Below are positions 1 to 17,057 of a stretch of DNA of 64,000 nt, in pieces. Made by a program: the position numbers and the translations under genes. Each line of letters begins with the position of its first letter. Position 1 is the first letter of the stretch. The notes beneath the pieces were generated by a model that was not told where the DNA came from, did no database searches, and worked only from the letters and a program-made list of their open reading frames with translations. Origin of the DNA: Candidatus Latescibacterota bacterium (lineage in GTDB: Bacteria; Latescibacterota; UBA2968; UBA8231); assembly GCA_964291625.2 (NCBI GenBank), contig OZ220089.1, forward strand, positions 448,001 to 512,000. The letters are read 5' to 3'.

Positions 1-1116
1 GAGGGCGCCCCGGCCCCGGGGGATGAGCTCGAAGCGCTCCTTGTTCCCGGGGATCGTGTTGATCTCCTCCAGGGGAATGGGGCCGCGGTGCTTGCGGTTC
101 AGCTCTCCGATGCGCTCGAAGCCGGCGGCCTCGGTGACGAAGACGTAGAACTCGATCGTCTGGTCGACGTAACCGCGGCTGAGCTTCTCGGGGATCTGCA
201 GCTCCAGCTCCAGCTGCTGGCGCGTGACCTCCTCGCTGAACTTCACCTGCGTCAGGTTGGCGTTGGTCCCCGGGTCGACGAAGGCGGGGGTGATCTCCCG
301 CGGCAGGTTGACCAGGGCCAGGCGGAAGGTCTTCTCGTCCTCGGCGAGACGCTCGAGGATGAGGTCGAAGTTGACCCGCGTGTTGAGGTCGCCCTCCTGG
401 GAGAACTGGACCGAGTTGATCGTCGGCAGGTCCTGGCTCGACTCCCGGCGCATGACGATGTGCAGGAGCTCCTTGCTGCCGTCGAGGTAGGTGAGGTCGA
501 CGACCACGTCCTCGTAGTCTTGGAGCAGCCGGAAGGTGAGCCGCGTGCCCTCGCCCAGGGGCAGGGAGGGCACGAGGATCTCGTAGGGCTCGGCGACGAT
601 CGTTCCCAGGCGCTCGGTGAGGGAGACCTTGAGGTTCTGGATCTCCAGCAGGGGCCGGATCTCGCTCTCCTCGCGGTCGGGGTTGAGCGACAGGGCCTGG
701 TCGAGCTGGGAGGCGTTCTCGAGGACGATGTCGACCTGGCGGCGGCCGTCGAGGGTGCGGTACTTGCGGGCCTCGCGGATGGTGACGCGGGTGGCGTCCT
801 TGAGGAACTCGAGGCGCGTGCGGTCGAGCTGGAAGACCGCCTCGCTGTACTTCAGCTCCGAGTGCAGGAAGGCGCGCCGGGCTTTGTTCAGGCTCTCGAG
901 GGTCTCGATCTTCTCGTCGTAGAGCTCCTGGATGATGTCGTACTCGCTCTTGTTGTTGTCCATCTCCAGCTTGCGGCTCTCCACCTCCCACTGCGCCTTG
1001 CGCAGCTTGATGTCGTAGAGGCGCTGCTCCTTGGTGCGCAGGTCCTTGGTCGCCGCCAGGGGCGAGGCCAGGAGGCCGAGGAGGAAGGCGCCCAGACAGG
1101 CGCGGGCGGCGGTCAT
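1..1116 (-). CDS. Exported alpha-hairpin/Ig-like protein, paralog of 1113-2633 (3'-partial, runs off the left edge)
   Basis: Not in the ORF track. Hand translation from the ATG at 1116 (ATGA overlap) gives MTAARACLGAFLLGLLASPLAA...DATRVTIREARKYRT...LPTINSVQFSQEG...FDLILERLAEDE...ELIPRG, open to position 1 and colinear with the neighbouring gene. Confidence 0.9.
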   Translation of the reverse strand, partial: MTAARACLGAFLLGLLASPLAATKDLRTKEQRLYDIKLRKAQWEVESRKLEMDNNKSEYDIIQELYDEKIETLESLNKARRAFLHSELKYSEAVFQLDRTRLEFLKDATRVTIREARKYRTLDGRRQVDIVLENASQLDQALSLNPDREESEIRPLLEIQNLKVSLTERLGTIVAEPYEILVPSLPLGEGTRLTFRLLQDYEDVVVDLTYLDGSKELLHIVMRRESSQDLPTINSVQFSQEGDLNTRVNFDLILERLAEDEKTFRLALVNLPREITPAFVDPGTNANLTQVKFSEEVTRQQLELELQIPEKLSRGYVDQTIEFYVFVTEAAGFERIGELNRKHRGPIPLEEINTIPGNKERFELIPRGRGAL

Positions 1117-2633
1117 CGGCGGCTGATCCGGACGCTGGCCACGCCGATGCCGACGACGAGGAGCACGAGGATGCCGATGAGGATGACGTTTCCGGCGATG
1201 TTCGATCGCGCCCCCACGTGGATGGTCAGGTTCTTCTCCAGGGACTCCACGTTCTCGTTGCCCACCTGGCCCTGGGCCTCGACGCCGAGCTCGTAGTTGC
1301 CCACGGCGATGTCGGGGGGCGGCCGGGCGACGATGTCGAGGGGCGCGCGCTCTTCGGGCTCCAGGCGCTTGATGAGGGTGGGCGTCACCTCCTCCTGCCA
1401 CTGGTAGGGCAGGTCGAGGGCGGCCTTGATGTTCTGCACCGCCACGCTGCCGCGGTTGAGGAACTCGACGCGGATGTTCAGCTCGTCGCCGGTCTGGATC
1501 TCCCGGTAGGTGTTGGAGACGAGGACCTCGAGCTTGCCGATGCCCTTGGGGATGAGCTCGAGCTCGACGTAGTTGGCCCGCAGGGCGCTCACCTCCTCCT
1601 CCGGCACCGGGTCGTCGCCGTAGCGCGCCCGGATGGCGTTGATGCGGGCGTACTCGCGCGGCTCGGTGACCAGGGCGAAGAAGGGGCGCGCCAGGCCCAC
1701 CAGGTCGCGGTCGAGCTTCTCGGGGATCTCGAGGACGAGGCCGAGGGTGTCCTTGGACTTGGTCTCGTCGAACTTCACCTGGTTGACCTTGGCGCCGGCG
1801 TTGCGGAAGGAGTGGTCGATCTTGCGCGGCAGGCCGAGGACGGCGAGGGCGAAGCTGCGCTCCTCGTCGGAGAGGCGCTCGAGGATGAGGTCGAAGCGCA
1901 CGTCCTGCTGCAGCTCGCCCGACTGCGAGAACTGGGCGGAGTTGATGCTCGGCAGATTCTCGCGCCCGCCCTTGCGCAGGGTGACGGGGATGCTCTCCAG
2001 GGCGTCAAGGTAGCCGAGGACCACGGCCACCGCCTCCTCGTCGCGCAGGAGGCGGAAGGTCAGGGTGCGCCGCTCGCCCACGTCGAGGGCGGGGACGCGG
2101 GTCTCGTAGGGCTCGCCCACGAGGGGCCCGTTCTCCAGGGAGACGAAGATGTTCTCCACGCGCAGCAGGATGCGCAGATCCTCCTCGGTGAGGGAGGGAT
2201 CGACGACGAGGGCGTCGCCCGTGTCGGAGGCGTTCTCGACGACGATGTCGACCATGCTCTTGCCGTCGGGGCTCTTGTACTTGCGGGCGTCGCGCACGAC
2301 GATATGGGTGGCGTTGCGCAGCAGGTCGAGCTTGGTCTCCTCCAGCAGGATCTCGGCCTCCTCCTTCTGCAGCCGCGCCTCGGCGTAGCTGTTCTGCGCC
2401 TGCTTGTAGGTGAGGAGGGGCACGAAGCCCGAGTCGTGGAGGGCCCGCGTGAGCCGCAGTTCCTCCAGGGCCTGCTCGAGGCTGGTGCGGCGCTGGTCCA
2501 GCTGCAGCTGGCGCTCGTCGAGCTGCAGCTTGTCGAGCTGCTGCTGGCGCGTGAGGCCGGCGCCCCCGGGAGCCGCGGCGGCCTGCGCGGCGAGGAGCAG
2601 GAACCCGGCCAGCAGCGGGAACTTCGCCCTCAT
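1113..2633 (-). CDS. Exported protein with N-terminal coiled-coil hairpin, Ig-like/NEW3 (COG1470-like) domains and C-terminal TM anchor
   Basis: Signal peptide; Q/L/E-rich helices; NEW3-like segment NRGSVAVQNIKAALDLPYQW...LEPEER...PPPDIAVGNY; terminal TM helix followed by RISRR. Confidence 0.8.
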   Translation of the reverse strand: MRAKFPLLAGFLLLAAQAAAAPGGAGLTRQQQLDKLQLDERQLQLDQRRTSLEQALEELRLTRALHDSGFVPLLTYKQAQNSYAEARLQKEEAEILLEETKLDLLRNATHIVVRDARKYKSPDGKSMVDIVVENASDTGDALVVDPSLTEEDLRILLRVENIFVSLENGPLVGEPYETRVPALDVGERRTLTFRLLRDEEAVAVVLGYLDALESIPVTLRKGGRENLPSINSAQFSQSGELQQDVRFDLILERLSDEERSFALAVLGLPRKIDHSFRNAGAKVNQVKFDETKSKDTLGLVLEIPEKLDRDLVGLARPFFALVTEPREYARINAIRARYGDDPVPEEEVSALRANYVELELIPKGIGKLEVLVSNTYREIQTGDELNIRVEFLNRGSVAVQNIKAALDLPYQWQEEVTPTLIKRLEPEERAPLDIVARPPPDIAVGNYELGVEAQGQVGNENVESLEKNLTIHVGARSNIAGNVILIGILVLLVVGIGVASVRISRR

Positions 2634-4033
2634 TCGACGTACCCCATCAGCCGCCGCAACGCGGCCTGGCGCGAGATGTAGGTCTCCTGGTTCCGGAACA
2701 GCTCTTCCTGGGCGGAGAAGAACTGCTGCCGGAAGTTCTCCAGCACCGCCTCGTCCACCTGCCCTCCCTTCTCCTGGACCTGCTGCTTGATCTCCAGCCG
2801 CCGGCGGGCGATGACCACGCTCTTCTCCTGCAGCCGCTGGGTCTCCTCGGCCTCGAGCATCGACTGGTAGGCCTGGCGCACGCCCAGCTCCACCGAGGCC
2901 CTGAGGTCGCGCAGCTGCACCTGCAGGCCCTGCAGCCGGGCGCGCTCGAGGCCCTCGCGGCCCAGGCGGGCGCCGCCCTCGAAGATGGGGATGCGCGCCT
3001 GCACGCGGGCCGACCAGGCCGCTTCGCCCGCGTCCTCGGGCGTGTCCGCCTCGTCGAGGGTGAGGCCGGTCTCCACACCGACGCCCCAGGTGCCGCCCTC
3101 GCGGCCGACGGTGAGGCCCGCCCGGCGGCGGCCGTCGCCGACGCCGGCGTCGGCGCTCAGGTCGGGGGCGTACTCCCAGCCGATCTCGCGCAGGACCCGC
3201 CGCTGCTCGTCGAGGAGCTGCTCGGTGACGCCGATCTCCACGTCGTGAACGAGGGCCCGGCCCACGGCCTCGTCCTGGTCGACGGCGAAGGGCTCCAGCT
3301 CGCCGCCGAGCCGCAGGTCGAGGCCGATGGGGCGGCCGATGAGGCGCAGGAGCTCCATCTTGTCGCGCAGCTGCTCGCGCCGGATGCGGTTGATGCTGAG
3401 CTCCTCCTCCAGGACGTTGAGCTCGGCCTGGAGCTTCTGCTCCTCGGAGGCGAGGCGCTTCTCGAAGCGGGCCTGCTGACGCGCGAAGGTGGCCTCGAAG
3501 TTCTGCCGCGAGGCGACGCGCAGGGCGATCTGCTGGTCCTTGAGCAGAATCAGGTGATAGAGCTCCCAGACGCGGGCGCTGACCTCGTAGACCTTGTCCT
3601 GGTAGTCGAAGACGGCCTTGCGCAGATCGGCGCGCAGCTGGATCTCGGAAGCGGCGTCGGGGCCGAACTCGAAGAGGCGCTGCTCGAGCAGCAGCTCGCT
3701 GGCCAGCTGGTCGCGGGTGGTGGCGTCGCCCTCGGCGCGCAGGGCGTCGTACCCGGCGGTGAGGCTCACCCGCGGCATCAGGCGGGAGCGGACGACGACG
3801 GCGTCGCTCTCGACCTCCTCGACGCGCTTGCGCGCGCGGATCAGCTCGCGGTTGTGGGAGAAGGCCGCCGCGAGGCAGTCGGCCAGGCCGAGGGGCGCCG
3901 CCCCGGCGGTGGAGTCGGGCCGCGCCGGAGGCCCCTCGGCGACGGCGGGACCGAGGGCCGCGGCCACTCCCGCGATGAGAACCGCCGTCCGCAGGTGGAG
4001 GGCCCGGAACGGCGAAAAGGTCAGCAAAATCAA
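2630..4033 (-). CDS. TolC-family outer membrane efflux protein
   Basis: Two OEP-like repeats (LADCLAAAFSHNREL...LMPRVSL; ARIPIFEGG...VRQAY). Start placed at TTG 4033 (alternative 4027), downstream of the predicted promoter. Confidence 0.85.
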   Translation of the reverse strand: MILLTFSPFRALHLRTAVLIAGVAAALGPAVAEGPPARPDSTAGAAPLGLADCLAAAFSHNRELIRARKRVEEVESDAVVVRSRLMPRVSLTAGYDALRAEGDATTRDQLASELLLEQRLFEFGPDAASEIQLRADLRKAVFDYQDKVYEVSARVWELYHLILLKDQQIALRVASRQNFEATFARQQARFEKRLASEEQKLQAELNVLEEELSINRIRREQLRDKMELLRLIGRPIGLDLRLGGELEPFAVDQDEAVGRALVHDVEIGVTEQLLDEQRRVLREIGWEYAPDLSADAGVGDGRRRAGLTVGREGGTWGVGVETGLTLDEADTPEDAGEAAWSARVQARIPIFEGGARLGREGLERARLQGLQVQLRDLRASVELGVRQAYQSMLEAEETQRLQEKSVVIARRRLEIKQQVQEKGGQVDEAVLENFRQQFFSAQEELFRNQETYISRQAALRRLMGYVE

Positions 4034-4064
4034 TAGGTTCCGTAGGGTCTGGCAGATCGCGCTA

Positions 4065-4093
4065 ATCCTACTCGTGAAGGTGGACCATGTCAA
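4065..4093 (-). promoter_or_regulatory. Sigma70-type promoter for the tolC operon
   Basis: Minus strand TTGACA (4093-4088), 17-nt spacer, TAGGAT (4070-4065). Confidence 0.7.
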
Positions 4094-4118
4094 GATGGGG
4101 TTGCGTGCAAGCCATTGC

Positions 4119-4148
4119 TTGACATGGGTCACGTACCCCCCGCACGTT
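4119..4148 (+). promoter_or_regulatory. Possible divergent sigma70 promoter for the ABC operon
   Basis: TTGACA at 4119-4124; only a weak -10 (CACGTT) at an 18-nt spacer. Confidence 0.4.
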
Positions 4149-4190
4149 ACCCCTGCGAATCGCGGGCCGACTTTTCCCGGAGAGAGGCGA

Positions 4191-4913
4191 ATGCTCGAGA
4201 TCATCGGGATGACCAAGCACTACGGCGACGTCCACGCCGTGAACGACCTCACCCTGACCATCGAGCCGGGCGAGATCTTCACCATGCTCGGAGCCAACGG
4301 CGCCGGCAAGACGACCACCCTCATGGTGGCCCTCGGGTTCACCGAGCCGACGGACGGGACGGTGAAGATCTGCGGCGTCGACGTCACGCGCGACCCGCTC
4401 GAGGCCAAGCGCCACGTGGCCTACGTGTCGGAGAACGTCATGCTCTACGGCAACTTCACGGCCCGCCAGAACCTCGAGTTCTTCACCAAGCTCGGCGGCC
4501 GCAAGGAGGTGGAGGCCTCGGAGTACGACCAGGTCATGGACCGCGTCGGCCTGCAGCGCGACGCCTTCGACCGGCGCGTCAAGGGGTTCTCCAAGGGCAT
4601 GCGCCAGAAGCTCGGCATCGCCATCGCCATCATGAAGAACGCCGAGGTGATCCTCCTCGACGAGCCGACCTCGGGACTGGACCCCAAATCGGGCGCCGAG
4701 TTCCTGCAGCTGCTGGCCGAGCTGCGCGAGGAGAACAAGGCGATCTGGATGACGACCCACGACATCTTCCGGGCCAAGCAGATCGCCGACCGCGTGGGCA
4801 TCATGGTCGAGGGCAACCTGGTGAAGATCTTCACCCGCGACGAGCTCGGGCAGGAGGACCTGGAATCGATCTACGTGGAGTTCGTGAGCCAGCCCGCAGA
4901 GCAGGCGGCCTGA
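4191..4913 (+). CDS. ABC transporter ATP-binding protein (ABC-2/CcmA type)
   Basis: Walker A GANGAGKTT, signature FSKGMRQK, Walker B ILLDEPT, H-loop TTHD; GAGAGG RBS before the ATG at 4191. Confidence 0.95.
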   Translation: MLEIIGMTKHYGDVHAVNDLTLTIEPGEIFTMLGANGAGKTTTLMVALGFTEPTDGTVKICGVDVTRDPLEAKRHVAYVSENVMLYGNFTARQNLEFFTKLGGRKEVEASEYDQVMDRVGLQRDAFDRRVKGFSKGMRQKLGIAIAIMKNAEVILLDEPTSGLDPKSGAEFLQLLAELREENKAIWMTTHDIFRAKQIADRVGIMVEGNLVKIFTRDELGQEDLESIYVEFVSQPAEQAA

Positions 4914-5019
4914 CGGCCGTCGACGCCGCCGGCCGCCGGCCCCGACCCGCCTTGCGCCCCCGTTCCCGCATGTCCCCGGTCAGCGGCGCCCCCGGCGCCG
5001 CGATTCCATCGAGGCTTCC

Positions 5020-6405
5020 ATGCTCCTGCGACTGATCCGCAAGGAAGTCCTGCACAACATCCTGAGCTTCCGCTTCGCCGTCACCTACGGCCTGCTCTTC
5101 GTCCTCGTCCTGCTCGCCGTCTTCCTCATGGGCAACGAGCACCGGCAGCGCATGGAGACCTATACCCGGCAGGAGGCCCAGGCCCGGGACCGCCTGGAGG
5201 AGCTGGCCGGGGTGCAGGACGCCACCGAGCAGTTCCGGCAGATCCAGCGCGAGGACTTCGCGGGGGTTCGCCAGCCGGGGGCGCTGGCCGTCCTCGCCCG
5301 CGGTCTCGAGGGCAGCCTGCCGGCGCAGATCTCCTCCGGCGGGTGGTTCACCACGCACAGCTCCGAGGACCGCCTGGGGCGCAACATCCTCCTCGAGATC
5401 TTCCAGGCCCCCGACTTCGCCTACGTGGTCAACATGGTCCTGAGCCTGCTGGCCCTGCTCTTCGTCTTCGACTCCGTCTGCGGCGAGAAGGAGCGGGGCA
5501 CCCTCAAGCTCCTGCTGTCGGGCTCGGTCCCCCGCGACTCGGTGCTGCTGGGCAAGTGGGTGGGCGGCTACCTCTCCATCGCCGGGCCCTTCGCCGCCGC
5601 CGCCGCCGCCGGCTTCCTCTACCTCTCCCTCTCCGGCTCCCTGCCGCTCGAGGCGGAGGTCGTCTCCCGCTTCGCCGCGATCCTCGCCGTCTCCTTCCTC
5701 TATATCTCCGCCTGCTTCAGTCTCGGTCTGCTGATCTCCACCCTCGCCCACCGCGGCGCCACGGCCCTGCTCATGGCGCTGCTGGTGTGGATCGGCTGGA
5801 TCCTGGTGGTGCCCAACGTGGCGCCTGTCGTGGCCCGCCTGGCGGCGCCGGTGCCGTCGCGCCAGGTGATCGACGCCGAACAGCAGGCCATCGACCGCGA
5901 GGCGGAGCTGCTGATGGGGGCCATCCGCAAGAGCAAGGTCTACGGCGACCAGCAGCAGATGGAGCGCATCCGGGAGGAGACCGAGCAGCGCAAGCGCAAG
6001 CTGGACGGATTCTACAAGGACCGCATGTCGCGCCAGACGTCCCTGAGCCAGAACCTGGCGCGCCTGTCGCCGTCGGCCAGCTATCTCCTCGCCGCCACCC
6101 GTCTCGCCGGCACCGGCCCCGACCTCTTCGCCCACTTCTCCGACGCCGTCGAGCGCTTCCACGGCGCCCACGAAGACTTCCGCCGCCAGATGTACGGCAA
6201 CGTCTCCTGGACCGGAGGACCCGATCCGGACATCCAGGACGAGGGCTGGTTCGACCCCGGCGAGGTGCCCCGGCTGTCCATGTTCTCCGAGAGCCTCTCC
6301 GAAGCCTTCGACGGGGCCCTCTTCGACATCCTGCTGCTGTGCGTGTTCAACGTGCTGTTCTTCCTGCTGTCGTACGTCTTCTTCCTCCGATACGACGTCA
6401 CCTGA
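5020..6405 (+). CDS. ABC-2/NosY-type permease subunit
   Basis: GEKERGTLKLLLS...LLGKW motif, multiple TM helices, two large extracytoplasmic loops, C-terminal FLRYDV. Confidence 0.9.
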   Translation: MLLRLIRKEVLHNILSFRFAVTYGLLFVLVLLAVFLMGNEHRQRMETYTRQEAQARDRLEELAGVQDATEQFRQIQREDFAGVRQPGALAVLARGLEGSLPAQISSGGWFTTHSSEDRLGRNILLEIFQAPDFAYVVNMVLSLLALLFVFDSVCGEKERGTLKLLLSGSVPRDSVLLGKWVGGYLSIAGPFAAAAAAGFLYLSLSGSLPLEAEVVSRFAAILAVSFLYISACFSLGLLISTLAHRGATALLMALLVWIGWILVVPNVAPVVARLAAPVPSRQVIDAEQQAIDREAELLMGAIRKSKVYGDQQQMERIREETEQRKRKLDGFYKDRMSRQTSLSQNLARLSPSASYLLAATRLAGTGPDLFAHFSDAVERFHGAHEDFRRQMYGNVSWTGGPDPDIQDEGWFDPGEVPRLSMFSESLSEAFDGALFDILLLCVFNVLFFLLSYVFFLRYDVT

Positions 6406-6426
6406 GCCGCCCCCGGGAGAACGCCC

Positions 6427-7860
6427 GTGCTGCTGCACATCGTCCGCAAGGAGCTCCTCGACCAGCTGCTGTCCCTGCGCTTCGCCATCGCCTGCGGCAT
6501 CTGCCTCATCGTCTTCCTGCTCAGCGCCGTGGTCCTGACGCGGGATTACCGCGAGGGCCTGTCCACGTACAACATGAACCGGGTCATGCACCGCAACGAG
6601 CTGCAGCAGCGCAGCGAGATCTGGAGCCTGAACGAGGGGGTCACCGTCGACCGGCCCCTGAACCTCATGAACACGCTGGTGCGCGGCCTGTCGAAGGAGC
6701 TGACCGAGAGCGTCCAGGTGCAGCCCGGGAACCGCCTCGACTTCCCCGAGGGCTGGGAGCAGAACCCGGTGCTGCCCCTCTTCCCGCCGGTGGACTTCGT
6801 CTTCATCGTCGGCATCATACTGAGCCTGCTGGCCCTGGCCTTCGCCTACGACGGGGTCTCGGGCGAGGCCGAGACCGGCGTCCTCAAGCTGCTCATGTCG
6901 TACAGCGCTCCTCGCGACCTGGTGCTCCTCGGCAAGTGGCTCGGCGGCTACCTGGCCCTCGTCGCGCCCTTCACCGTCTCCTTCGTACTCGCCCTCCTCG
7001 TGGTGCTGCTGTTCCCCGACGTGCAGCCCGACGCCGAGAGCTCGCTGGCCCTGCTCGCCCTCTACGGCCTCGCCCTGCTCTACCTCGGCGCCGTGTACAG
7101 CCTGGGCCTCTTCGTCTCCTGCCGCACCAGGCTGGCCTCGACCTCGATCACCGTCCTCCTGCTGCTGTGGGTGTCCCTGATCCTGGCGGTGCCGAACATG
7201 GCGCCGTACGTGGTCAGCCAGGTGGTGCCGATCCCCTCCGCCGAGGAGGTGGACCGCGAGAAGCAGGCCCTGCAGATGGAGCAGCAGCGGCGCTTCCAGG
7301 AGATCATCGCGGAGGAGCAGGAGCGGCTTGGCCGCGACAACGTGTGGGGCGACGAGTCGGTGCAGGAGCGGTTCCGGGTGGCGGCGGAGGAGTCCCAGGC
7401 GGAGATACAGAAGATCGAGGACAGTTTCCGCACCCAGGTGGCGGGGCAGACGCGGCTCTCCGGCATTCTCGCACGCATGTCTCCCCTGACCTCCTTCAAC
7501 CTCGCCGCCTTCGACCTGGCCGCCGCCGGCATCGCCCAGGAGGAGGAGTGGGTGGCGAGCCTGGAGGCCTTCGGCGACACCTGGTCGGCGTACTCGGAGG
7601 AGAAGCAGCGCGCCTACAGGGAGTGGATCCAGGAGCAGATGGCCGCTTCCCCCAGCGGCGGCGTGACCATCACGCCGCAGGACATGGAGCGGTTCAACCA
7701 GGACCTGGACCTGTCCGACGCTCCGCGGTTCGACTTTACCCACATGGGCGTTTCCGACCGCCTCGCCGCGGTCTACGTCGATCTGGCCTTGCTGGCCCTT
7801 TGGAACGTCGCCTTCTTCATGCTCGCCTACCTTTCCTTCCTGCGGTACGACATCAACTGA
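6427..7860 (+). CDS. ABC-2/NosY-type permease subunit (paralog)
   Basis: GEAETGVLKLLMS...LLGKW; same architecture as the upstream gene; GTG start. Confidence 0.9.
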   Translation: MLLHIVRKELLDQLLSLRFAIACGICLIVFLLSAVVLTRDYREGLSTYNMNRVMHRNELQQRSEIWSLNEGVTVDRPLNLMNTLVRGLSKELTESVQVQPGNRLDFPEGWEQNPVLPLFPPVDFVFIVGIILSLLALAFAYDGVSGEAETGVLKLLMSYSAPRDLVLLGKWLGGYLALVAPFTVSFVLALLVVLLFPDVQPDAESSLALLALYGLALLYLGAVYSLGLFVSCRTRLASTSITVLLLLWVSLILAVPNMAPYVVSQVVPIPSAEEVDREKQALQMEQQRRFQEIIAEEQERLGRDNVWGDESVQERFRVAAEESQAEIQKIEDSFRTQVAGQTRLSGILARMSPLTSFNLAAFDLAAAGIAQEEEWVASLEAFGDTWSAYSEEKQRAYREWIQEQMAASPSGGVTITPQDMERFNQDLDLSDAPRFDFTHMGVSDRLAAVYVDLALLALWNVAFFMLAYLSFLRYDIN

Positions 7861-7909
7861 CCCAGGCCCGCCCCGGGCGATCCAGACCGATCGGGCCACA
7901 GGAGACTCC

Positions 7910-8839
7910 ATGGCCCATCACGAGTTCGTCCCCGACCACTACCACAACACCCTCGGCTGGCACGAGCCGGTCCTCGAGGTCGCCCCGGGGGACTCGGTCT
8001 CGACGACCACCGTCGACGCCCGCGGCCGGGACCGCCACGGCCAGCAGGTGGCGGTCCGGGGCAACCCCCAGACCGGCCCCTTCCACGTCACCGGCGCCGA
8101 GCCCGGGGACGCGCTGGCGGTCACCCTCGACCTGGTGAGGCCCAACCGGCCCTGGGGCTTCACCGCCACCGCCGTGGCCCCCAACGTGCTCGACCCCGGC
8201 TTCCGGCCGCGCTTCGACGACGATCTCGAGGTCACCCGCTGGGAGGTCGACGTGGAGGCCGGCAGCGTGCGCCTCAGCGAGCCCGAGGGCCCCCTGTCGC
8301 GGCTCTCCCTGCCCCTGGACCCGATGGTCGGCTGCTTCGGCGTGGCCCCCGAGAGAGGGCAGGCGATCTCCACGGCCACCTCCCACCGCCACGGCGGCAA
8401 CATGGACTACCGGGGCTTCCGCCAGGGGGTGACCGTCTGGTTCCCCGTCTTCGCGCCGGGGGCCCTGTTCCACATCGGCGACGGCCACGCCGTGCAGGGC
8501 GACGGCGAGATCGTCGGCACGGGGGTGGAGATCTCCTTCGACGTGCGCTTCACCCTCGACCTGGTGAAGGGCTCGTCCATCGGCTGGCCGCGGGCCGAGG
8601 ACGACACCTGGCTGATGACGGCGGGCAACGCCCGGCCCCTGGACCAGTGCGTGCAGCACGCCACCACCGAGATGCTGCGCTGGCTGGAGACCGACCACGG
8701 CCTCGACGCCCGCACCGCCCACCTGCTCCTGGGGCAGGCGGTGGCCTACGACCTGGGGAACATCTACGACCCCGCGTACACCATGATCTGCAAGGTGAGG
8801 AAGAGCCACGTGGAGGCGATCCGGGGACAGGCCCCATGA
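7910..8839 (+). CDS. Acetamidase/formamidase family protein
   Basis: NPQTGPF, GAEPGD, HGGNMD and GDGHAVQGDGE motifs. Confidence 0.92.
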   Translation: MAHHEFVPDHYHNTLGWHEPVLEVAPGDSVSTTTVDARGRDRHGQQVAVRGNPQTGPFHVTGAEPGDALAVTLDLVRPNRPWGFTATAVAPNVLDPGFRPRFDDDLEVTRWEVDVEAGSVRLSEPEGPLSRLSLPLDPMVGCFGVAPERGQAISTATSHRHGGNMDYRGFRQGVTVWFPVFAPGALFHIGDGHAVQGDGEIVGTGVEISFDVRFTLDLVKGSSIGWPRAEDDTWLMTAGNARPLDQCVQHATTEMLRWLETDHGLDARTAHLLLGQAVAYDLGNIYDPAYTMICKVRKSHVEAIRGQAP

Positions 8840-9750
8840 GCAACCACGTCGTCGTGACCTGCGTCTCCTACGCCCCCATCAGCGGCTCCGACGAGGAGGT
8901 CGTGGAGCGCACCCACGAGGACCTGAAGGGGCTCGTGGGGCGCGCCGCCCGGGCCACGCGGCCGGACCTCGTGGTCCTGCCCGAGACGATCTGCCGCACC
9001 TTCGACGAGGAGGTCCCCGAGGGCCCCACGTCTCAACTGCTGGCCGGCCTGGCGCGGGAGCACGGCTGCTACGTCACCGTGCCCGTGCACCAGAAGGAGC
9101 CCGCCACCGGCGCCGTGTACAACGTCCTCGGCCTTCTCGACCGCCAGGGGGAGCTGGCCGGCGTCTACCGCAAGTACATCCCCGTGTACCCCGAGTTCGA
9201 CCACGGCACCCGCCCGGGCCCGGGGGCGCACCTGATCGAGACCGACTTCGGCCCCGTGGGCGGGGTCATCTGCTTCGACCTGAACTTCGGCGAGCTGCGG
9301 GCCGAGTACAAGAAGCTCAAGCCGCGGCTGCTGCTCTTCAGCTCCATGTACCACGGCGGCCTGGTGCAGCACTTCTGGGCCCTCGACGTGCAGGCGTTCT
9401 TCGCCGGCTCCGTGTACCGGGGCACGCCCTGCTCCATCATCGATCCCCAGGGCACCACCCTGGCCGAGAGCAACAACTACCTGCCCTGGGCCTCGGCCCG
9501 CGTCAACCTGGACTACGAGATCGTGCACCTCGACCGCAACCAGGGCCGGTACGACGAGATCCACGGGAAGTACGGCGACGCCGTGCGCATCGTCACCACC
9601 GGGCAGGTGGGCACCTCCGTCCTCTACAGCGAGGCGGAGGAGCGCACCGCCGCCGACATCGTCGAGGAGTTCGAGCTGATCCGGCTGGACGACTACTTCG
9701 ACTGGTCGCGCAAACTGCGCGCGGAGCAGCTGGAGAAGGCCCCGGCCTGA
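8836..9750 (+). CDS. Carbon-nitrogen hydrolase (nitrilase superfamily)
   Basis: E-K-C triad contexts VLPE, YRK, ICFD; ATGA overlap with the upstream gene. Confidence 0.9.
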   Translation: MSNHVVVTCVSYAPISGSDEEVVERTHEDLKGLVGRAARATRPDLVVLPETICRTFDEEVPEGPTSQLLAGLAREHGCYVTVPVHQKEPATGAVYNVLGLLDRQGELAGVYRKYIPVYPEFDHGTRPGPGAHLIETDFGPVGGVICFDLNFGELRAEYKKLKPRLLLFSSMYHGGLVQHFWALDVQAFFAGSVYRGTPCSIIDPQGTTLAESNNYLPWASARVNLDYEIVHLDRNQGRYDEIHGKYGDAVRIVTTGQVGTSVLYSEAEERTAADIVEEFELIRLDDYFDWSRKLRAEQLEKAPA

Positions 9751-9842
9751 GCCGCTGGACGGACCCCGGTCCGGGCGGGTTATTCTACTTCAATACAACG
9801 CCACATCGTCTCACACCGTCCCACCCCGCCGAGGGAGCCCGG

Positions 9843-10853
9843 ATGTCCCCTGCCCTTCTTCTTCTCCTGATCCTGCTGCCCGGCGCGCTCACCGGCCAGG
9901 AGCGCCCGCCGACACCGGTCATCGTCGCCGAGGTCCTCGAGCAGCCGCTGGTCGAGGACCTCTCCTTCGTCGGGCGCATCCTGCCGGTGCGCTCCAGCCG
10001 CGTCGCCGCCGAGACCGAAGGCAAGGTGGTGCAGCGGTTCAGGGACGCCGGTCAGACCGTGCGCGCCGGCGACCCCCTCTTCGCGCTGGCCAACGATCCG
10101 CTCCAGGCCGCCCTGGACGAGGCCGAGGCCGATCTGGCCCTGCGCCGGTTCATCCACGACGGCAGCCGCCGCCTGCGAGCCACCGAAGCGGTCTCCGAGC
10201 AGGACCTGCGCATCGAGGCCTTCGAGCTGGCCCGGGCCGAAGCCCGCCTGAGCGGCCTGAAGGCCCAGGTGGAAGACCTCCTCGTCCGCGCCCCCTTTTC
10301 CGGGCACATCGTCCGCACCGCCACCGAGGTCGGCGAGTGGGTCGGCCGCGGCGGCGAGATCGCCCAGGTGATCTCCATCGACACGGTGCGCGCCATCGTC
10401 GAGGTGCCCGAGCACCACGTGCCGCAGCTGGCCCTGGGGGACAGCGGCGCCATCTTCGTCGATGCCCTCGGCGGCGATCCCGTCCACGGCCTCGTGACCG
10501 CCATCTCCGCCGAGGGCTACCCCTCCTCCCGCACCTTCCCGGTCGTCGTCGAGGCCGCCAATCCGGAAGGCCGGATGCGCAGCAACATGTCGGCCCGGGT
10601 GCGCTTCCGGATCGCCCAGACGAGGCCGTCGCTCCTGGTGCACAAGGACGCCCTGGTCTCCGGTCCTCGGGGACAGGTGGTCTACCTCGCCCGCGACGGG
10701 ATGGCCCACGGCCGCCCCGTCGAAGCCGGGCTGGCGCACCAGGGCTACGTGGCCGTCACGGGCGAGCTGGCACCCGGCGATCTGGCCGTGGTGCGCGGCA
10801 ACGAGCGGCTGCGCGACGGCCAGGCCGTGCGCATCATCCGCAGGCAGCCGTAG
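9843..10853 (+). CDS. RND efflux periplasmic adaptor (MFP)
   Basis: Lipoyl/hairpin motifs GKVVQ...GQTVRAGDPL, VRAPFSG, GEWV, LRDGQAV. Confidence 0.92.
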   Translation: MSPALLLLLILLPGALTGQERPPTPVIVAEVLEQPLVEDLSFVGRILPVRSSRVAAETEGKVVQRFRDAGQTVRAGDPLFALANDPLQAALDEAEADLALRRFIHDGSRRLRATEAVSEQDLRIEAFELARAEARLSGLKAQVEDLLVRAPFSGHIVRTATEVGEWVGRGGEIAQVISIDTVRAIVEVPEHHVPQLALGDSGAIFVDALGGDPVHGLVTAISAEGYPSSRTFPVVVEAANPEGRMRSNMSARVRFRIAQTRPSLLVHKDALVSGPRGQVVYLARDGMAHGRPVEAGLAHQGYVAVTGELAPGDLAVVRGNERLRDGQAVRIIRRQP

Positions 10854-10859
10854 ACCGTC

Positions 10860-13800
10860 ATGCGCCTGATCGCCACAGCCATCCAGCGGCCCGTCAGCGT
10901 GACCGTCGGCGTGCTCCTGGTGGCGCTCTTCGGCCTGATCTCCCTCTTCCGGATCCCCGTTCAGCTCACGCCGGACATCGACCGGCCGATCATCACGGTC
11001 TCCACCGTGTGGCCGGGGGCCAGCCCGGAAGAGGTCGAGCAGGAGATCGTCCAGCGCCAGGAGGAACAGCTGAGGAGCGTCGAGGGACTGGTGCTGATGA
11101 CCAGCGAGAGCAACGACAGCCGCGGGGTCGTCTCCCTCGAGTTCAGCGTCGGCGTCGATCCCGACGCGGTGATGCTGCTGGTCTCCAACAAGCTCGACCA
11201 GGTCTTCGGCTATCCCCTCGACGCCGAGCGGCCGGTGATCTCGGCCGGCGGCAGCGGGCCGAGCGGGGCGATCACCTGGATCATGCTCCAACCCCTTCCG
11301 GACCGCGGCGACCTGGACATCGAACGCTACCGCGACTACGCCGAGGAAGTCGTCAAGACCGCCCTCGAGCGCGTGCCCGGCGTCTCCCGGAGCAACATCT
11401 ACGGCGGCTACGAACGGCAGCTCCAGGTCATCGTCGATCCCCGGGCCATGGCCGCCCGCCAGATCACCGTCCAGGACCTGGCCCAGGCCCTCACCCGCGA
11501 GAACGCCAATACCAGCGCCGGGACCTTCGACGAGGGCAAGCGCCGCTACATCGTGCGCACCGTCGGCCAGTACCAGCAGCCCGCGGACATCGAGAAGGTC
11601 GTCGTCCGCTCGGCCGACGGCACCCGGGTCACCGTCGGCGAGATCGCCCGCACCCGCCTCGGCTACGTCCGCACCGTGGCCTCCGTGCGGCAGAAGGGCA
11701 CCCCGGCGATCGCCATCAACGCCCAGCGCGAGACCGGGGCCAACGTCCTCGAGGTCATGGACGGCATCCGCCTCACCCTCCGCGAGCTCAACGAGGGGCC
11801 GCTGGCCCGCGAGGGCCTCTACCTGAAGCAGGTCTACGACGAGACCGACTACATCGACAGCGCCATCGGCCTGGTGCGCTCCAACATCGTCATCGGCGGC
11901 GCCCTGGCGGTGACGGTGCTCTTCATCTTCCTGCGCAGCGTCAGCTCGGTGGCGATCATCGCCACGGCGATCCCGATCTCGATCGTCGGCACCTTCCTGG
12001 CCATGGGGCTCCTGGGCCGCAACATCAACGTCATCAGCCTGGCGGGGATGAGCTTTGCCGTGGGCATGGTCATCGACAACGCCATCGTCGCCCTCGAGAA
12101 CATCTTCCGCCACCAGCAGATGGGGAAGACCCGCGTGCGCGCGGCCCTCGACGGGGCCTCGGAGGTCTGGGGGGCGCTCCTGGCCAGCACCCTGACCACG
12201 GTGGCCATCTTCCTGCCCATCGTCTTCGTCGAGGACGAGGCCGGTCAGCTCTTCCGCGACATCGCCATCGCCGTCTCCTGCTCGGTCGTGCTCAGCCTGA
12301 TCGTGGCCATCTCCGTCATCCCCAGCCTGGCCAACAAGATCCTCGGCGGCGGCGAGCGGCGCCGGAGCCGACTGGTCGCCTGGGGCGAAGGGGTGCGGAC
12401 CTTCATCGCCCGGAGCGTCTTCCGCATCAGCGGCAGCACGGTGCTGCGCATGGGGGTCATCGCCGGGCTGATCGGCCTGTCGCTGGGCATCGCAATCACC
12501 CTGCTGCCCAAGTCGGAATACCTGCCCACGGGCAACCGCAACCTGATCTTCGGCATCGTCCTGCCGCCCCCCGGCTACAACCTCGACGAGCTGATCCAGG
12601 TGGGCCAGACGATCGAGGACGTCCTGCGGCCCCACTGGGAGGCGGCCTCCGACCCCGACGGCCCCCAGGCCCAGGCGCTGTCGGGACCGCCGATCGCCAA
12701 CATGTTCTTCGTCGCCTTCGGCCGCTCGGCCTTCATGGGCGCGCGCTCGACCGACCCGGCGCGCGTGCGCGAGCTGATCCCGATCATCCAGGGGCCGGTC
12801 CTGGGCGGGGTGCCGGGGACGTTCGCCGTGGTGCAGCAGTCGAGCCTCTTCCAGCGCGCCACCGGCAGCGGGCGCTCCATCGACATCGACATCACCGGGC
12901 CCGACCTGGACCACCTCGTCGGGCTGGGGGGGCGGATCTTCGGCCAAGTCCGGCAGGTCGTGCCCGGGTCCCAGGCCCGCCCCATTCCCAGCCTCGACCT
13001 GGGCAATCCGGAAGTCCGCATCCTCCCCGACCGCGTGCGCGCCGCCGACCTGGGGCTCTCGGCGCGGGAGATCGGCTCGGCGGTCAACGCCTTGATGGAC
13101 GGGGCCCTCGTCGACGGCTACCAGTTCCAGGGGGAGGAGATCGACCTGGTGCTCCGGGGCGAGGAGGACTGGTTCCGCACCCAGGACATCGCCAACCTGC
13201 CGATCTACACCCCCCGCGGCCAGCTGGTGCCGCTCAGCGCCGTGGCGCGAGTCGAGGTGACCACCGGCCCCGAGCAGATCAACCACATCGAGCGGGACCG
13301 GGCGATCACCGTCCGGGTCATCCCGCCGGAGACGGTTCCCCTGGAGACCGCCCTCGACGCGCTCCAGACCAAGATCGTCCAGCCCCTCGTCGATTCCGGC
13401 GACCTGGTCCCGCCCTACCAGATCCGACTGTCCGGCTCGGCCGACGACCTGCGGCGCACCCGCCAGGCCCTGCAGTGGAACTTCCTCCTGGCCCTGCTCA
13501 TCACCTACCTGCTGATGGCGGCGCTCTTCGAGAGCTTCCTCTACCCCTTCGTCATCATGCTCAGCGTGCCGCCGGCCCTGGCGGGCGGCATCCTCGGGCT
13601 GGAGGTCGTCAACCGCACCCTGACCTACCAACCCCTCGACATCCTCACCATGCTCGGCTTCGTCATCCTCATCGGGGTGGTGGTCAACAACGCCATCCTC
13701 ATCGTCCACCAGACGCTGAACATCCTGCGGGAGGCGCCCGAGACCCCGCTCAGAGAGGCGATCCACGACGCCGTCTACAGCCGCGTGCGGCCGATCTTCA

Positions 13801-14000
13801 TGTCGACCATCACCAGCGCCCTGGGCATGCTGCCGCTGGTCATCTTCCCCGGCGCCGGGTCCGAGCTCTACCGGGGTCTGGGCAGCGTCGTGATCGGGGG
13901 GCTGCTGCTGTCGACGCTGTTCACCCTCTTTCTGGTGCCTACCTTCCTCAGCCTGGCGATGGACCTGAGGGCCTGGATCGGCCGGGGCGGGAGGGTGTAG
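10860..14000 (+). CDS. AcrB/AcrD/AcrF-family RND permease
   Basis: 1046 aa; GASPEEVE, GMVIDNAIV and RVRPIFMST motifs. Confidence 0.95.
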   Translation: MRLIATAIQRPVSVTVGVLLVALFGLISLFRIPVQLTPDIDRPIITVSTVWPGASPEEVEQEIVQRQEEQLRSVEGLVLMTSESNDSRGVVSLEFSVGVDPDAVMLLVSNKLDQVFGYPLDAERPVISAGGSGPSGAITWIMLQPLPDRGDLDIERYRDYAEEVVKTALERVPGVSRSNIYGGYERQLQVIVDPRAMAARQITVQDLAQALTRENANTSAGTFDEGKRRYIVRTVGQYQQPADIEKVVVRSADGTRVTVGEIARTRLGYVRTVASVRQKGTPAIAINAQRETGANVLEVMDGIRLTLRELNEGPLAREGLYLKQVYDETDYIDSAIGLVRSNIVIGGALAVTVLFIFLRSVSSVAIIATAIPISIVGTFLAMGLLGRNINVISLAGMSFAVGMVIDNAIVALENIFRHQQMGKTRVRAALDGASEVWGALLASTLTTVAIFLPIVFVEDEAGQLFRDIAIAVSCSVVLSLIVAISVIPSLANKILGGGERRRSRLVAWGEGVRTFIARSVFRISGSTVLRMGVIAGLIGLSLGIAITLLPKSEYLPTGNRNLIFGIVLPPPGYNLDELIQVGQTIEDVLRPHWEAASDPDGPQAQALSGPPIANMFFVAFGRSAFMGARSTDPARVRELIPIIQGPVLGGVPGTFAVVQQSSLFQRATGSGRSIDIDITGPDLDHLVGLGGRIFGQVRQVVPGSQARPIPSLDLGNPEVRILPDRVRAADLGLSAREIGSAVNALMDGALVDGYQFQGEEIDLVLRGEEDWFRTQDIANLPIYTPRGQLVPLSAVARVEVTTGPEQINHIERDRAITVRVIPPETVPLETALDALQTKIVQPLVDSGDLVPPYQIRLSGSADDLRRTRQALQWNFLLALLITYLLMAALFESFLYPFVIMLSVPPALAGGILGLEVVNRTLTYQPLDILTMLGFVILIGVVVNNAILIVHQTLNILREAPETPLREAIHDAVYSRVRPIFMSTITSALGMLPLVIFPGAGSELYRGLGSVVIGGLLLSTLFTLFLVPTFLSLAMDLRAWIGRGGRV

Positions 14001-14178
14001 AGGGCGGACCTCCCATGTCACCGAGCAAGCTGTTGCGCCAAGCCCTGAACCCATGGCCGGAAGAAGAGCGGCAGATCGCAAGAGGAAGTCGCCGATCTTC
14101 TCGGCAACCAGGCAGACACAGTCAAGAGACCATCTGCGCACCTCGCGCGGCCACCTCGGAAGAAAGGTTGTTTGCTTT

Positions 14179-15420
14179 ATGGTAGAGGACAATCTGCAGA
14201 AAGACCGTCCTTCGGGAGAGGAAGGTCCTGTCCATCAGGTCCTCCGTCTGATCGCACCGCAAGAAACCAAACACAGCGAGGACATCTACTCGCTCTTCGA
14301 CGCACTGGGCCGACCGGATCTGCGGGAGATGGGCCGGGCCGGACGGATCGCCGACAGCAAGCACGACTGGAAAACCTCCCGCGTCGGCTTTGTCGGTGAC
14401 CAGATCGCCACATACTATGGCGTATACGACCTCACCGTGCGGGTCGGGACCGCCCGTGTGAAGGCCGCTGGCGAGAATCTCTGCTATACTCACCCCGCCT
14501 ACGGGGAACGCTTCGGTGAGTTGATGGACCAAACGGTGGCGGAGGCGCTCGAAGCTATGCGCGACCAAGGCTACGACCTCGTCATCAACCTGGCCGGGCG
14601 AGAGTATGCTCGCTATGGCTATGTGCCGGTTTGGCGCTGCGAAGAGTGGAGAGTGGAGACAGCGGAGCTGCCACGCGAAGCGCCGGACTTTGAGTTGCAG
14701 CCCTTCGCGCCGACGCACCGCGAGGATCTGGCGGCGGTGTACAACAACACCAACGAGACGCTGACCGGTACTACCGTACGGCCGACCTATTTCCAGAACA
14801 AGGAGCCCGGCGGTTTCCAGGGCTGGCTGTGGACCGACGATAAGGATCGGCCTAGAGGCTATGTCACAGGCGGAGATGGGGGGAAGGATGTCTACGTCGA
14901 CGAACACGCGGGTCCAGCCGATGAGGTCCTCCAGGCCCTGGCGCTGATCGCGCGCCGTGGGGCCCATGATACGGTCCGCTTCCGGGGGTTGCCCTACAAC
15001 AGCCCCGTGGGCCAGAAGCTGAGGCAACTCCCCTCGTGCTCGATCGAATGGGTGGGTCCGCCCCGGGTTTATTTCGCCCGCATCGTCAACCTGCAATCCT
15101 TGTTCGAAAATCTGGTGCCCGAGCTGTCACGGCGCCTGGGAGCCTTCCCATTGGTGCAATGGGAAGGGGATCTGCTGATTTCAACGGGGGAGGAAGAGGT
15201 CGCCCTGCGCATCAAAGGGGCGGACGTAAGCGTCGTAACCACGGGAGAGATGACGCACGCGATTCGCGGCGGGCAGGATATCGTGCAGTTGGCGTTGGGG
15301 ACGGATACGCCGGAGGATGTGGTGGAACGCAATGGCATACGGCTCAGCGGTGATGCCGAGCAACTGGCAAAGATACTCTTTCCCGCGCAATACCCGATGT
15401 TCGGGAATCAGGACCTGTAA
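14179..15420 (+). CDS. GNAT (Eis-like) acetyltransferase with SCP2-like C-terminus
   Basis: YTHPAY...ELM...AMRDQGYD...YARYGY GNAT pattern, second GNAT-like half, C-terminal LFP; start uncertain (14053 or 14179); lower GC. Confidence 0.65.
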   Translation: MVEDNLQKDRPSGEEGPVHQVLRLIAPQETKHSEDIYSLFDALGRPDLREMGRAGRIADSKHDWKTSRVGFVGDQIATYYGVYDLTVRVGTARVKAAGENLCYTHPAYGERFGELMDQTVAEALEAMRDQGYDLVINLAGREYARYGYVPVWRCEEWRVETAELPREAPDFELQPFAPTHREDLAAVYNNTNETLTGTTVRPTYFQNKEPGGFQGWLWTDDKDRPRGYVTGGDGGKDVYVDEHAGPADEVLQALALIARRGAHDTVRFRGLPYNSPVGQKLRQLPSCSIEWVGPPRVYFARIVNLQSLFENLVPELSRRLGAFPLVQWEGDLLISTGEEEVALRIKGADVSVVTTGEMTHAIRGGQDIVQLALGTDTPEDVVERNGIRLSGDAEQLAKILFPAQYPMFGNQDL

Positions 15421-16565: not shown

Positions 16566-16568
16566 CCA

Positions 16569-16994
16569 ATGTCATCCAGTGCAAACGCGCGTATCGCCCG
16601 CGAATCCCTCGAAGCCGCCTTCGCCTGCGACTGGAAGCGCCTCCGCGAAACCTACGCCGACGACGCAACCATGGTCGGCGGCGGACTCGACCTCCGCGGC
16701 GCCGATGACATGGTGGCGCTCTGGCGGGGCTGCCACGAGGAAGAGCGGGGCCTGCGGCTCGAGATTCTCAACCTCGTCGCCGACGATGAGATGGCCGTCG
16801 TGGAGTTCCGCCACAAGGGCGTCGTGAACCAGCCTCTCCCCGGACTGCCCGAAGCGTTGTATGGCAGACGCCTGGAGGCGACCGAGGTGCACCTGTTCCG
16901 GATTCAGGACGGAAAGATCACCGCCATCACCATCTATGGCGGTGTGCTTGAGTCTCCCGACGTTCCGCTCAGGCGGGTCTGGGTGACCGAGTAG
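16569..16994 (+). CDS. SnoaL/NTF2-like (ester cyclase-like) protein
   Basis: YADDA...LRG...VVEF...FRIQDGKI pattern. Confidence 0.8.
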   Translation: MSSSANARIARESLEAAFACDWKRLRETYADDATMVGGGLDLRGADDMVALWRGCHEEERGLRLEILNLVADDEMAVVEFRHKGVVNQPLPGLPEALYGRRLEATEVHLFRIQDGKITAITIYGGVLESPDVPLRRVWVTE

Positions 16995-17057
16995 GGAAGT
17001 CGGCCTGCCGCAGTGTGAGCACCACGGATACACTCCAGGCCACCAATAGGGGAAACC

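Follow-up and report, generated by a model that had tools for sequence, protein, structure and literature searches.

We analysed a window of 64,000 nucleotides (the whole stretch of DNA under study) from the genome of a Candidatus Latescibacterota bacterium (G000:C1:448001-512000; the coordinates given below are window positions unless marked otherwise). At its left end lie two tandem paralogous genes, the products of which we call AdA and AdB, next to a gene of the TolC family and divergent from the genes of an ABC-2 transporter. We propose that AdA and AdB probably form a new class of adaptor, anchored by its C-terminus, which joins an ABC-2 exporter to TolC. In silico, we observed the domain architecture of the two proteins, the similarity of their hairpin to the hairpins of the membrane fusion proteins (MFPs) and the linkage of their genes to TolC and ABC-2 genes.

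Gene organization of the module

The TolC-family gene (2630 to about 4033, minus strand; its start codon is uncertain, TTG at 4033 or 4027) encodes an outer-membrane factor with two OEP repeats (Pfam E 1.4e-31). It is followed on the same strand by the gene of AdA (1113-2633, 506 amino acids) and by that of AdB (1-1116), of which the first 372 of 510 codons are inside the window; the remainder of AdB, with its NEW3 domain and C-terminal transmembrane helix, comes from the genome sequence that adjoins the window on its left (G000:C1:447587-448000, minus strand). A first-pass annotation of this DNA had described the three genes as translationally coupled, and both ATGA stop/start overlaps (tolC/AdA and AdA/AdB) are indeed seen in the sequence. 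It had also placed them divergently from an ABC ATPase and two paralogous permeases, and the gene positions are as claimed: the ATPase, of the DrrA/GldA/NodI-like ABC-2 type, lies at 4191-4913, permease 1 (461 amino acids) at 5020-6405 and permease 2 (477 amino acids, GTG start) at 6427-7860, all on the plus strand. Both permeases carry ABC2_membrane_2 and DUF3526 regions and are paralogues with 32% identity. The tolC operon and the ABC genes are separated by a divergent intergenic region of 157 bp with a lower G+C content (4034-4190), in which we found one sigma-70-like site for the tolC operon (4093-4065, minus strand) and no Rfam family of regulatory RNA, the sole match being below the threshold (E 0.82).

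Domain architecture of AdA and AdB

AdA and AdB share 39% identity across 484 residues, and both peptides quoted in the first-pass annotation are present in them. That annotation had assigned a NEW3 domain followed by a hydrophobic C-terminal helix to a single complete copy; the description holds for both full proteins (NEW3/NPCBM_assoc, PF10633: 45.6 bits, E 8e-12 for AdA; 44.3 bits, E 2e-11 for AdB; gathering cut-off 24.4 bits). All normal-length relatives among the matches listed carry NEW3 as well.

An AlphaFold2 model of AdA was built with 20 relatives (mean predicted local distance difference test, pLDDT, 85). Behind a signal peptide (residues 1 to about 25, as judged from the sequence), it consists of an alpha-hairpin (29-108) made of two helices (29-67 and 73-108, that is, arms of 39 and 36 residues) joined by a five-residue turn, of two immunoglobulin (Ig)-like domains (about 111-218 and 229-323), of a helical linker (325-349), of the NEW3 domain, which is a third Ig-like beta-sandwich (about 353-474), and of a transmembrane helix (479-505) with a basic tail behind it. 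The antiparallel hairpin at the N-terminus and the beta domains after it, both read from the letters alone at the outset, are thus recovered, with block-mean pLDDT of 88-96 across residues 31-110. When the whole model was compared with the PDB by Foldseek, it matched only strings of Ig-like domains (HYDIN, integrin legs); as such generic chains dominate the matches, this search says nothing on the hairpin.

The N-terminus of both proteins has a hydrophobic stretch of only about 12 residues and Ala-rich cleavage-type sites, which fits a signal peptide that is probably cleaved. The sole long hydrophobic helix of AdA is the C-terminal one, and AdB likewise ends in a hydrophobic helix and a basic tail, which fits type I membrane proteins. 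With such a topology, NEW3 would sit on the inner membrane and the tip of the hairpin would be the point farthest from it. Just after the predicted cleavage site, we noticed strongly conserved motifs: LT(R/K)EQQ-like in AdA (residues 27-36) and in the single-copy forms, DLRTKEQR-like in AdB (residues 24-34). This suggests that the free N-terminus, at the base of the hairpin, may have a role of its own. The length of the stalk varies within the family: in three long members, P0117 (718 amino acids), P0120 (797) and P0124 (779), the first Ig-like module occurs three times behind a normal hairpin.

Likeness of the hairpin to membrane fusion proteins

Three independent checks indicate, at the level of sequence, that the hairpin of AdA and AdB specifically resembles MFP hairpins. 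First, a profile of 20 family members was run against 177,635 distinct PDB sequences. It gave seven matches at E<=0.01, all of them MFP hairpins, with MexJ on top (3.5e-5) followed by a MacA/MexA chimera and MexA (about 2e-3); these hairpins align in register to profile positions 25-99. Weaker matches were a fused TriA-TriB chain (6vej, E 0.022), ZneB and AcrA. Second, the same profile was run against the 16,708 six-frame open reading frames (ORFs) of at least 150 amino acids of the window's own genome, where it found AdA, AdB and two others only (E 2e-5 and 2.7e-4). Both are HlyD-family MFPs, and both were matched on the hairpin inserted between the two lipoyl halves. Third, an hhalign comparison of the family with three MFPs of the same genome gave a probability of 92.3% (E 5.6e-7). 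This last alignment extends past the hairpin, AdA residues 110-128 being paired with the MFPs of this genome: the nearly invariant A-x-K-Y-x3-D-G of the first beta domain falls on a D-G-bearing strand which follows the hairpin in the MFPs. This may be a slight sign that the similarity is not confined to the hairpin.

The remainder of the two proteins is not that of an MFP. Neither paralogue has a Pfam match at E<=0.01 to Biotin_lipoyl, HlyD_3 or HlyD_D23, models which the true MFP of the window does match. AdA and AdB have neither a hairpin inserted in a lipoyl domain and followed by beta-barrel and membrane-proximal domains, nor, judging from their sequence, the N-terminal membrane anchor (lipid or transmembrane helix) of the MFPs. 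As these defining features of MFPs are missing, and as a further one, the tip motif, is complete in part of the family only, we do not class AdA and AdB among them, despite their MFP-like hairpin.

The MFPs bind TolC through a tip motif, RxxxLxxxxxxS, with T instead of S in HlyD (PMC3391258). The corresponding positions of our family are 61, 65 and 72 in AdA numbering (the register was taken from the alignments), and we counted their residues in the 227 members with N-terminal coverage. Of these, 215 have L65 and 130 have S or T72; R61 is found in 52 and is the commonest residue at its position. The full R-x3-L-x6-S/T motif occurs in 38 of the 227 members, 37 of which belong to the 118 distant cluster representatives; the consensus of a distant subset reads RxxxLxxxGLxS. 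The first-pass annotation had implied a full motif for the copies of the window, which proved wrong: AdA keeps the L alone and AdB keeps the L and a T. What each of them keeps is invariant among its orthologues, namely L65 and T72 in 17 AdB sequences (that of the window and 16 orthologues) and L65 in 17 AdA sequences.

Linkage to TolC

The product of tolC has the features expected of an outer-membrane factor, a protein of about 430-470 amino acids with two OEP repeats (PF02321) and a signal peptide. It scores 73.5 bits with the TolC model TIGR01844, the cut-off of which is 225; judged by its sequence, it is a divergent member of the TolC family.

We sampled the gene neighbourhoods of 60 loci in two phyla, 40 in the phylum of the window, half of them with a tandem pair and half with a single copy, and 20 in a second phylum, that of a Thermoanaerobaculia genome. 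In the first of these, a TolC-family gene lies directly beside the adaptor at 33 of 40 loci (19 of 20 with a tandem pair, 14 of 20 with a single copy), which confirms the expected linkage of the homologues to tolC. This adjacency is found in four gene orders (T for TolC, Ad for the adaptor, A for the ATPase, P for a permease): T-AdA-AdB divergent from A-P-P, P-P-Ad-T-A, T-Ad-A and T-Ad-P. Two genomes possess a pair as well as a single copy, and in both of them a TolC accompanies either locus (L036 and L066 in G130, L037 and L064 in G145). The one tandem locus without TolC (L046:2915-9801) looks like a disrupted locus: a phage-type integrase stands upstream, and AdA starts at profile position 77.

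The adaptor-linked TolCs score 316-637 bits against a profile of their own. In the window genome, which has ten OEP genes altogether, the linked TolC reaches 608 bits, and the other eight OEP ORFs found by this profile do not exceed 108 bits. By sequence, the adaptor-linked TolCs thus appear to be a subfamily of their own. A Pfam search for another adaptor in the module covered 100 neighbouring ORFs without an assignment, taken from 18 of the 40 loci, and gave one HlyD only, in L071, beside a separate ABC2_membrane_6 gene; the same scan gave one OEP, counted already, and six HEAT-repeat proteins. A candidate fusion of TolC with the adaptor, in genome G455, was rejected, its open frame of 1040 amino acids being a wrong frame across tolC.

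Linkage to the ABC-2 transporter

The transporter is a NosY-like type V ABC-2 exporter. Its permeases match PF12679 with 114.8 and 88.4 bits (cut-off 27.2), and the ATPase is a separate protein. The AlphaFold2 model of permease 1 (pLDDT 83.8, predicted TM-score, pTM, 0.82) shows a six-helix core, a first transmembrane helix 47 residues long and a periplasmic helical bundle at residues 281-393, the DUF3526 region. When this model is compared with the PDB by Foldseek, NosY chains of NosDFY take all of the top ten places (E 1.6e-4 to 1e-3, target TM-score 0.57-0.80).

An orthologous ATPase is found in 35 of the 40 loci of the first phylum and permeases in 34, several of the misses being on short contigs; in the second phylum, the counts are 18 and 17 of 20. 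Moreover, the adaptor is fused to a permease in P0254 (892 amino acids) and in its cluster mate P0262 (924 amino acids), which come from two independent assemblies. Each of these fusions is made of a complete ABC2_membrane_2 permease and of a full adaptor, with hairpin, NEW3 and C-terminal helix. Hence the link between adaptor and ABC-2 permease, already put forward in the first-pass annotation, is backed by near-universal synteny and by two natural fusions. Both came from the exhaustive search described below; a word-based search for longer fused forms found none, which is weak evidence.

Several observations concern the transporters found in and around such loci. In L036 (11708-14173), a MacB-type permease (MacB_PCD and FtsX) stands behind the T-AdA-AdB operon in place of ABC-2 permeases, and neither an orthologous ATPase nor an ABC-2 permease is present in the 20 kb covered. 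The window genome has at least seven further permease sets which match the profile of the DUF3526-type permeases with 147-551 bits (G000:C1 at about 1.83, 2.31, 2.50, 3.38, 3.89 and 4.76 Mb; C2 at about 0.27 Mb); the adaptor profile, run across the same genome, found adaptors at the window locus only. In relatives, HEAT_2-repeat proteins of 350-540 amino acids are encoded in or beside the ABC operons, often between ATPase and permeases (L039:2660-8274 and 13864-15330; L041:15748-17160; L043:13734-15341; L047:2627-4027 and 7332-8390); the window locus has none. Most of them have a lipoprotein-type signal, a Cys after a hydrophobic stretch, and one has a CBM9-like C-terminal part. A C39-peptidase ABC exporter is encoded directly upstream of the adaptor at one second-phylum locus, and radical-SAM/SPASM genes are near at two (C39-peptidase and radical-SAM genes: L113:9621-11966 and 2674-4332; L112:9420-10721 and 15583-17049), so that a link to modified peptides is possible. 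These operon partners, HEAT lipoproteins and C39/radical-SAM genes, give only hints as to the substrate.

Distribution, clades and pairing

A strong match to the family (E 4e-28 or better) was obtained in 79 of the 168 genomes of the phylum; 27 further genomes gave only weak N-terminal matches, of the MFP-hairpin kind. An exhaustive search of 1.84 billion representatives returned 1572 matches at E<=1e-3 and 241 clusters (at 50% identity) at E<=1e-30. According to the source labels and one record title, members exist in Latescibacterota, Acidobacteriota (Thermoanaerobaculia), Gemmatimonadota and Handelsmanbacteria. Of the 301 genomes sampled in the second phylum, 27 have the family.

We built a quick maximum-likelihood tree of 79 adaptors, leaving out rows that cover fewer than 400 profile positions. 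Its main split, which has an SH-aLRT support of 100%, separates two clades. The clade with the longer hairpin (52 rows) contains AdA and AdB as sister groups, together with two single-copy groups, and a TolC lies within 2.2 kb in 50 of its 52 rows. The tandem paralogues are therefore conserved as sister clades. The other clade (27 rows) has about ten residues less per helix, and those of its sequences that we examined keep at least L and S/T at the tip.

Finally, we predicted the complex of AdA (residues 27-478) with AdB (24-482), using an alignment of 17 rows for each. The interface score ipSAE was 0.53 (0.59, 0.49 and 0.53 in the separate runs) and the best control gave 0.00; contacts agreed by at least 85% between runs and the pLDDT of the partner was at least 80. 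In a benchmark, 116 of 157 solved complexes attained the ipSAE mark, as did 2 of 215 mismatched pairs, and the range up to 0.60 held only 18 of the 157 solved complexes plus both mismatches that passed. The prediction thus lends weak support to a pairing of AdA with AdB.

Neighbouring genes

To the left of AdB, we find in order a gene for a UVR-motif protein, dapB, dapA and a purH-like gene. The UvrB/UvrC-motif protein (about 270-300 amino acids) follows AdB on the same strand, before dapB, dapA and purH, not only in the window genome (L003:13709-14530) but in two further genera as well (L043:7487-8407, L046:11494-12378), which may be no more than synteny.

To the right, the permeases are followed on the plus strand (7910-14000), with gaps of 0-93 bp, by a formamidase-like gene, a CN-hydrolase gene, an HlyD-family MFP (9843-10853), located 2 kb past permease 2, and an RND transporter (10860-14000). 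The latter two have no outer-membrane factor gene of their own alongside, the next gene (14053-15420) being GNAT-like. The statement of the first-pass annotation that the locus has no classical MFP is therefore correct for positions 1-7860 and for the 15 kb that we read leftward from the window, where a conventional MFP had been named as something to look for and none was found, and it fails to the right of the permeases. The HlyD-RND pair is beside the module in 1 of the 40 loci only, L042, of the same genus; we take it as context, outside the conserved module.

Proposed mechanism and its alternatives

Taken together, the locus would encode a four-component trans-envelope exporter. Its motor would be the type V (NosY-like) ABC-2 transporter, with two copies of the ATPase and a heterodimer of permease 1 and permease 2, whose helical loops would extend into the periplasm. 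AdA and AdB, once rid of their signal peptide, would be held in the inner membrane by their C-terminal helix, with the basic tail in the cytoplasm; NEW3 and the transmembrane helix would lie against the permeases, the two further Ig-like domains would make a stalk, and the MFP-type hairpin at the far end would point to the outer membrane. The hairpins of several adaptor copies could together make a barrel, the simplest arrangement being an alternation of three AdA with three AdB as in two-adaptor pumps. This barrel would join the dedicated TolC trimer at the trimer's periplasmic tip, presumably by direct contact. The result would be a sealed duct for a substrate taken from the inner membrane or from the periplasm. 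With 36-39 residues per helix and 1.5 Å per residue, the hairpin measures about 55 Å, and three Ig-like domains, if stacked, would add about 110-130 Å, a length of the order needed to reach the tip of TolC, given the dimensions of known pumps.

As to the origin of the system, one reading, to which we give a little less than an even chance, is that the adaptors arose from a C-terminally anchored Ig/NEW3 accessory protein which acquired an MFP-type hairpin. Within one clade, this protein would have been duplicated into an obligate AdA/AdB pair that co-evolves with its own, private TolC; the older clade with the shorter hairpin would keep the R-L-S tip and dock to a shared TolC encoded elsewhere, as in E. 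coli. Co-evolution with a TolC of its own would explain why the canonical tip motif has decayed in the clade of the window.

A number of facts weigh against AdA and AdB as adaptors that join the exporter to TolC. The tips of the window copies are degenerate (L/L/P in AdA and I/L/T in AdB at the three positions), and the full motif is present in only 1 of 107 AdA-like sequences. A TolC is near in only 4 of the 27 tree rows of the clade with the shorter hairpin, and in 3 of the 20 loci of the second phylum (adjacent in L109, divergent in L121, 3.5 kb off in L120), where Pfam found no OEP or HlyD in 52 of the 76 further ORFs of at least 330 amino acids, the 24 unscanned ones being the farthest from the adaptor or in a near-duplicate locus. 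Five nearly complete genomes of one family (f3) have adaptor and ABC genes but lack the dedicated TolC subfamily altogether: its profile scores at best 59 and 48 bits in two of them and gives no match in the other three. Similarity between coiled coils can be convergent. The pTM of the AdA model is 0.46, so that the relative placement of its domains is unpredicted, and the two extra Ig-like repeats of the members of 718-797 amino acids do not fit a ruler of fixed length. The HlyD-RND pair, devoid of an outer-membrane factor of its own and situated 6 kb from tolC, could also use this TolC. Lastly, loci from related genomes are not independent samples.

Some of these facts would be expected if AdA and AdB were to the ABC-2 transporter what NosD is to NosFY, namely accessory subunits in the periplasm, which handle or hold the substrate on their Ig/NEW3 stalk. 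TolC would then belong to the same pathway without being docked by the hairpins, another adaptor being used or the substrate being released first into the periplasm. The linkage to ABC genes is both stronger and wider (ATPase in 35/40 and 18/20 loci) than that to TolC (33/40 and 3/20), the natural fusions join the adaptor to a permease and not to TolC, and the f3 genomes do without a dedicated TolC; the fold of the permease is closest to that of NosY, which binds a periplasmic partner, and HEAT-repeat lipoproteins are often part of the operon. However, this explanation accounts neither for an MFP-type hairpin at the free end, with the TolC-binding motif in many members, nor for the presence beside each adaptor locus of a TolC paralogue of its own, often translationally coupled, and no other adaptor of the module was found in the 15 kb to the left or among the neighbour ORFs scanned. 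We regard it as rather unlikely.

We hold it for improbable that the hairpin is a convergent coiled coil and the proteins are structural or tethering elements, or coiled-coil oligomers, which couple to no channel. For the hairpin, the PDB search gives E-values of moderate size (3.5e-5 to 2e-3), no MFP domains occur elsewhere in the protein, the tips of the window lack the R, and that of AdA lacks the S/T too. On the other hand, MFP hairpins are matched to the exclusion of other coiled coils, among the PDB sequences and among the ORFs of the genome, the alignment is in register with the tip, at which 215 of 227 members have the L, and the linkage to TolC and ABC genes would be left unexplained. 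Very improbable, finally, is a TolC which mainly serves the HlyD-RND pump (9843-14000) and is next to AdA and AdB by accident: the pump lacks an outer-membrane factor gene alongside, follows the ABC genes on their strand with short gaps and recurs in L042, yet it is beside the module in 1 locus of 40 against 33 of 40 for the adjacency of TolC and adaptor, tolC is translationally coupled to AdA and not to the RND operon, and a shared use of TolC would be compatible with AdA and AdB as its adaptors.

If AdA and AdB are indeed such adaptors, they would reveal what portion of an adaptor is really required for engaging TolC, and they would represent a new building plan among bacterial trans-envelope pumps. 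TolC-dependent export would be extended to the NosY-like ABC-2 transporters with DUF3526 loops, a large group without an assigned function, and the widespread "NEW3 domain-containing hypothetical proteins" (241 clusters) would receive one.

Comparison with known systems

The proteins of the family are annotated only as "NEW3 domain-containing" or "hypothetical". We found no description of the system in the literature searched, subscription journals being outside its scope: the papers on NEW3, NPCBM-associated domains, COG1470 or DUF3526 are, by their titles and abstracts, not on this system, and NEW3 is not mentioned in the literature on ABC transporters and TolC searched within the same limits. 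Word searches in the first 300,000 of the 747,818 characters of a large review on tripartite systems gave no adaptor of an Ig-like or ABC-2 kind.

The domain order of the MFPs is conserved. In the literature that we consulted, they are the one adaptor family of tripartite pumps. With AcrA, MexA, MexJ, MacA and HlyD, our proteins share an antiparallel alpha-hairpin of similar length and in-register sequence similarity, the RxxxLxxxxxxS/T tip in many family members, a predicted anchor in the inner membrane and genes located with those of a transporter and of a TolC-family protein. They differ in that the anchor is a C-terminal transmembrane helix instead of an N-terminal lipid or transmembrane helix, in that the hairpin is at the mature N-terminus instead of being inserted in a lipoyl domain, and in that three Ig-like domains, NEW3 included, replace the lipoyl, beta-barrel and membrane-proximal domains.

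NosDFY(L) contains the solved fold closest to permease 1, and is likewise an ABC-2 transporter with a periplasmic partner and a lipoprotein in the operon; but NosY, of about 270 amino acids, lacks the two long periplasmic insertions, NosD is a beta-helix and there is no TolC. As for systems with two adaptors, TriA and TriB have unequal roles. TriABC-OpmH of Pseudomonas aeruginosa has two paralogous adaptor genes, triA and triB, in one operon, as our locus has (PMC8277102). TriA and TriB are however classical MFPs working for an RND transporter, whereas here a new architecture would serve an ABC-2 transporter. YbhGFSR of E. coli is an ABC-2-type exporter with two different permease subunits, proposed to act with an adaptor and TolC, and resembles our system in all these respects (PMC7190983). 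It differs by YbhG, a classical MFP, by YbhF, a fused double nucleotide-binding domain, and by an unlinked tolC; DUF3526 loops are not stated for it.

In MacAB-TolC, six adaptors stand around a permease dimer that has periplasmic domains, and they dock to TolC tip to tip. This ABC-driven tripartite pump is our working model for the locus, with the difference that MacB has the type VII (FtsX/MacB) fold and that MacA, a classical MFP, has an N-terminal anchor, whereas the permeases described here are of the NosY-like type V.

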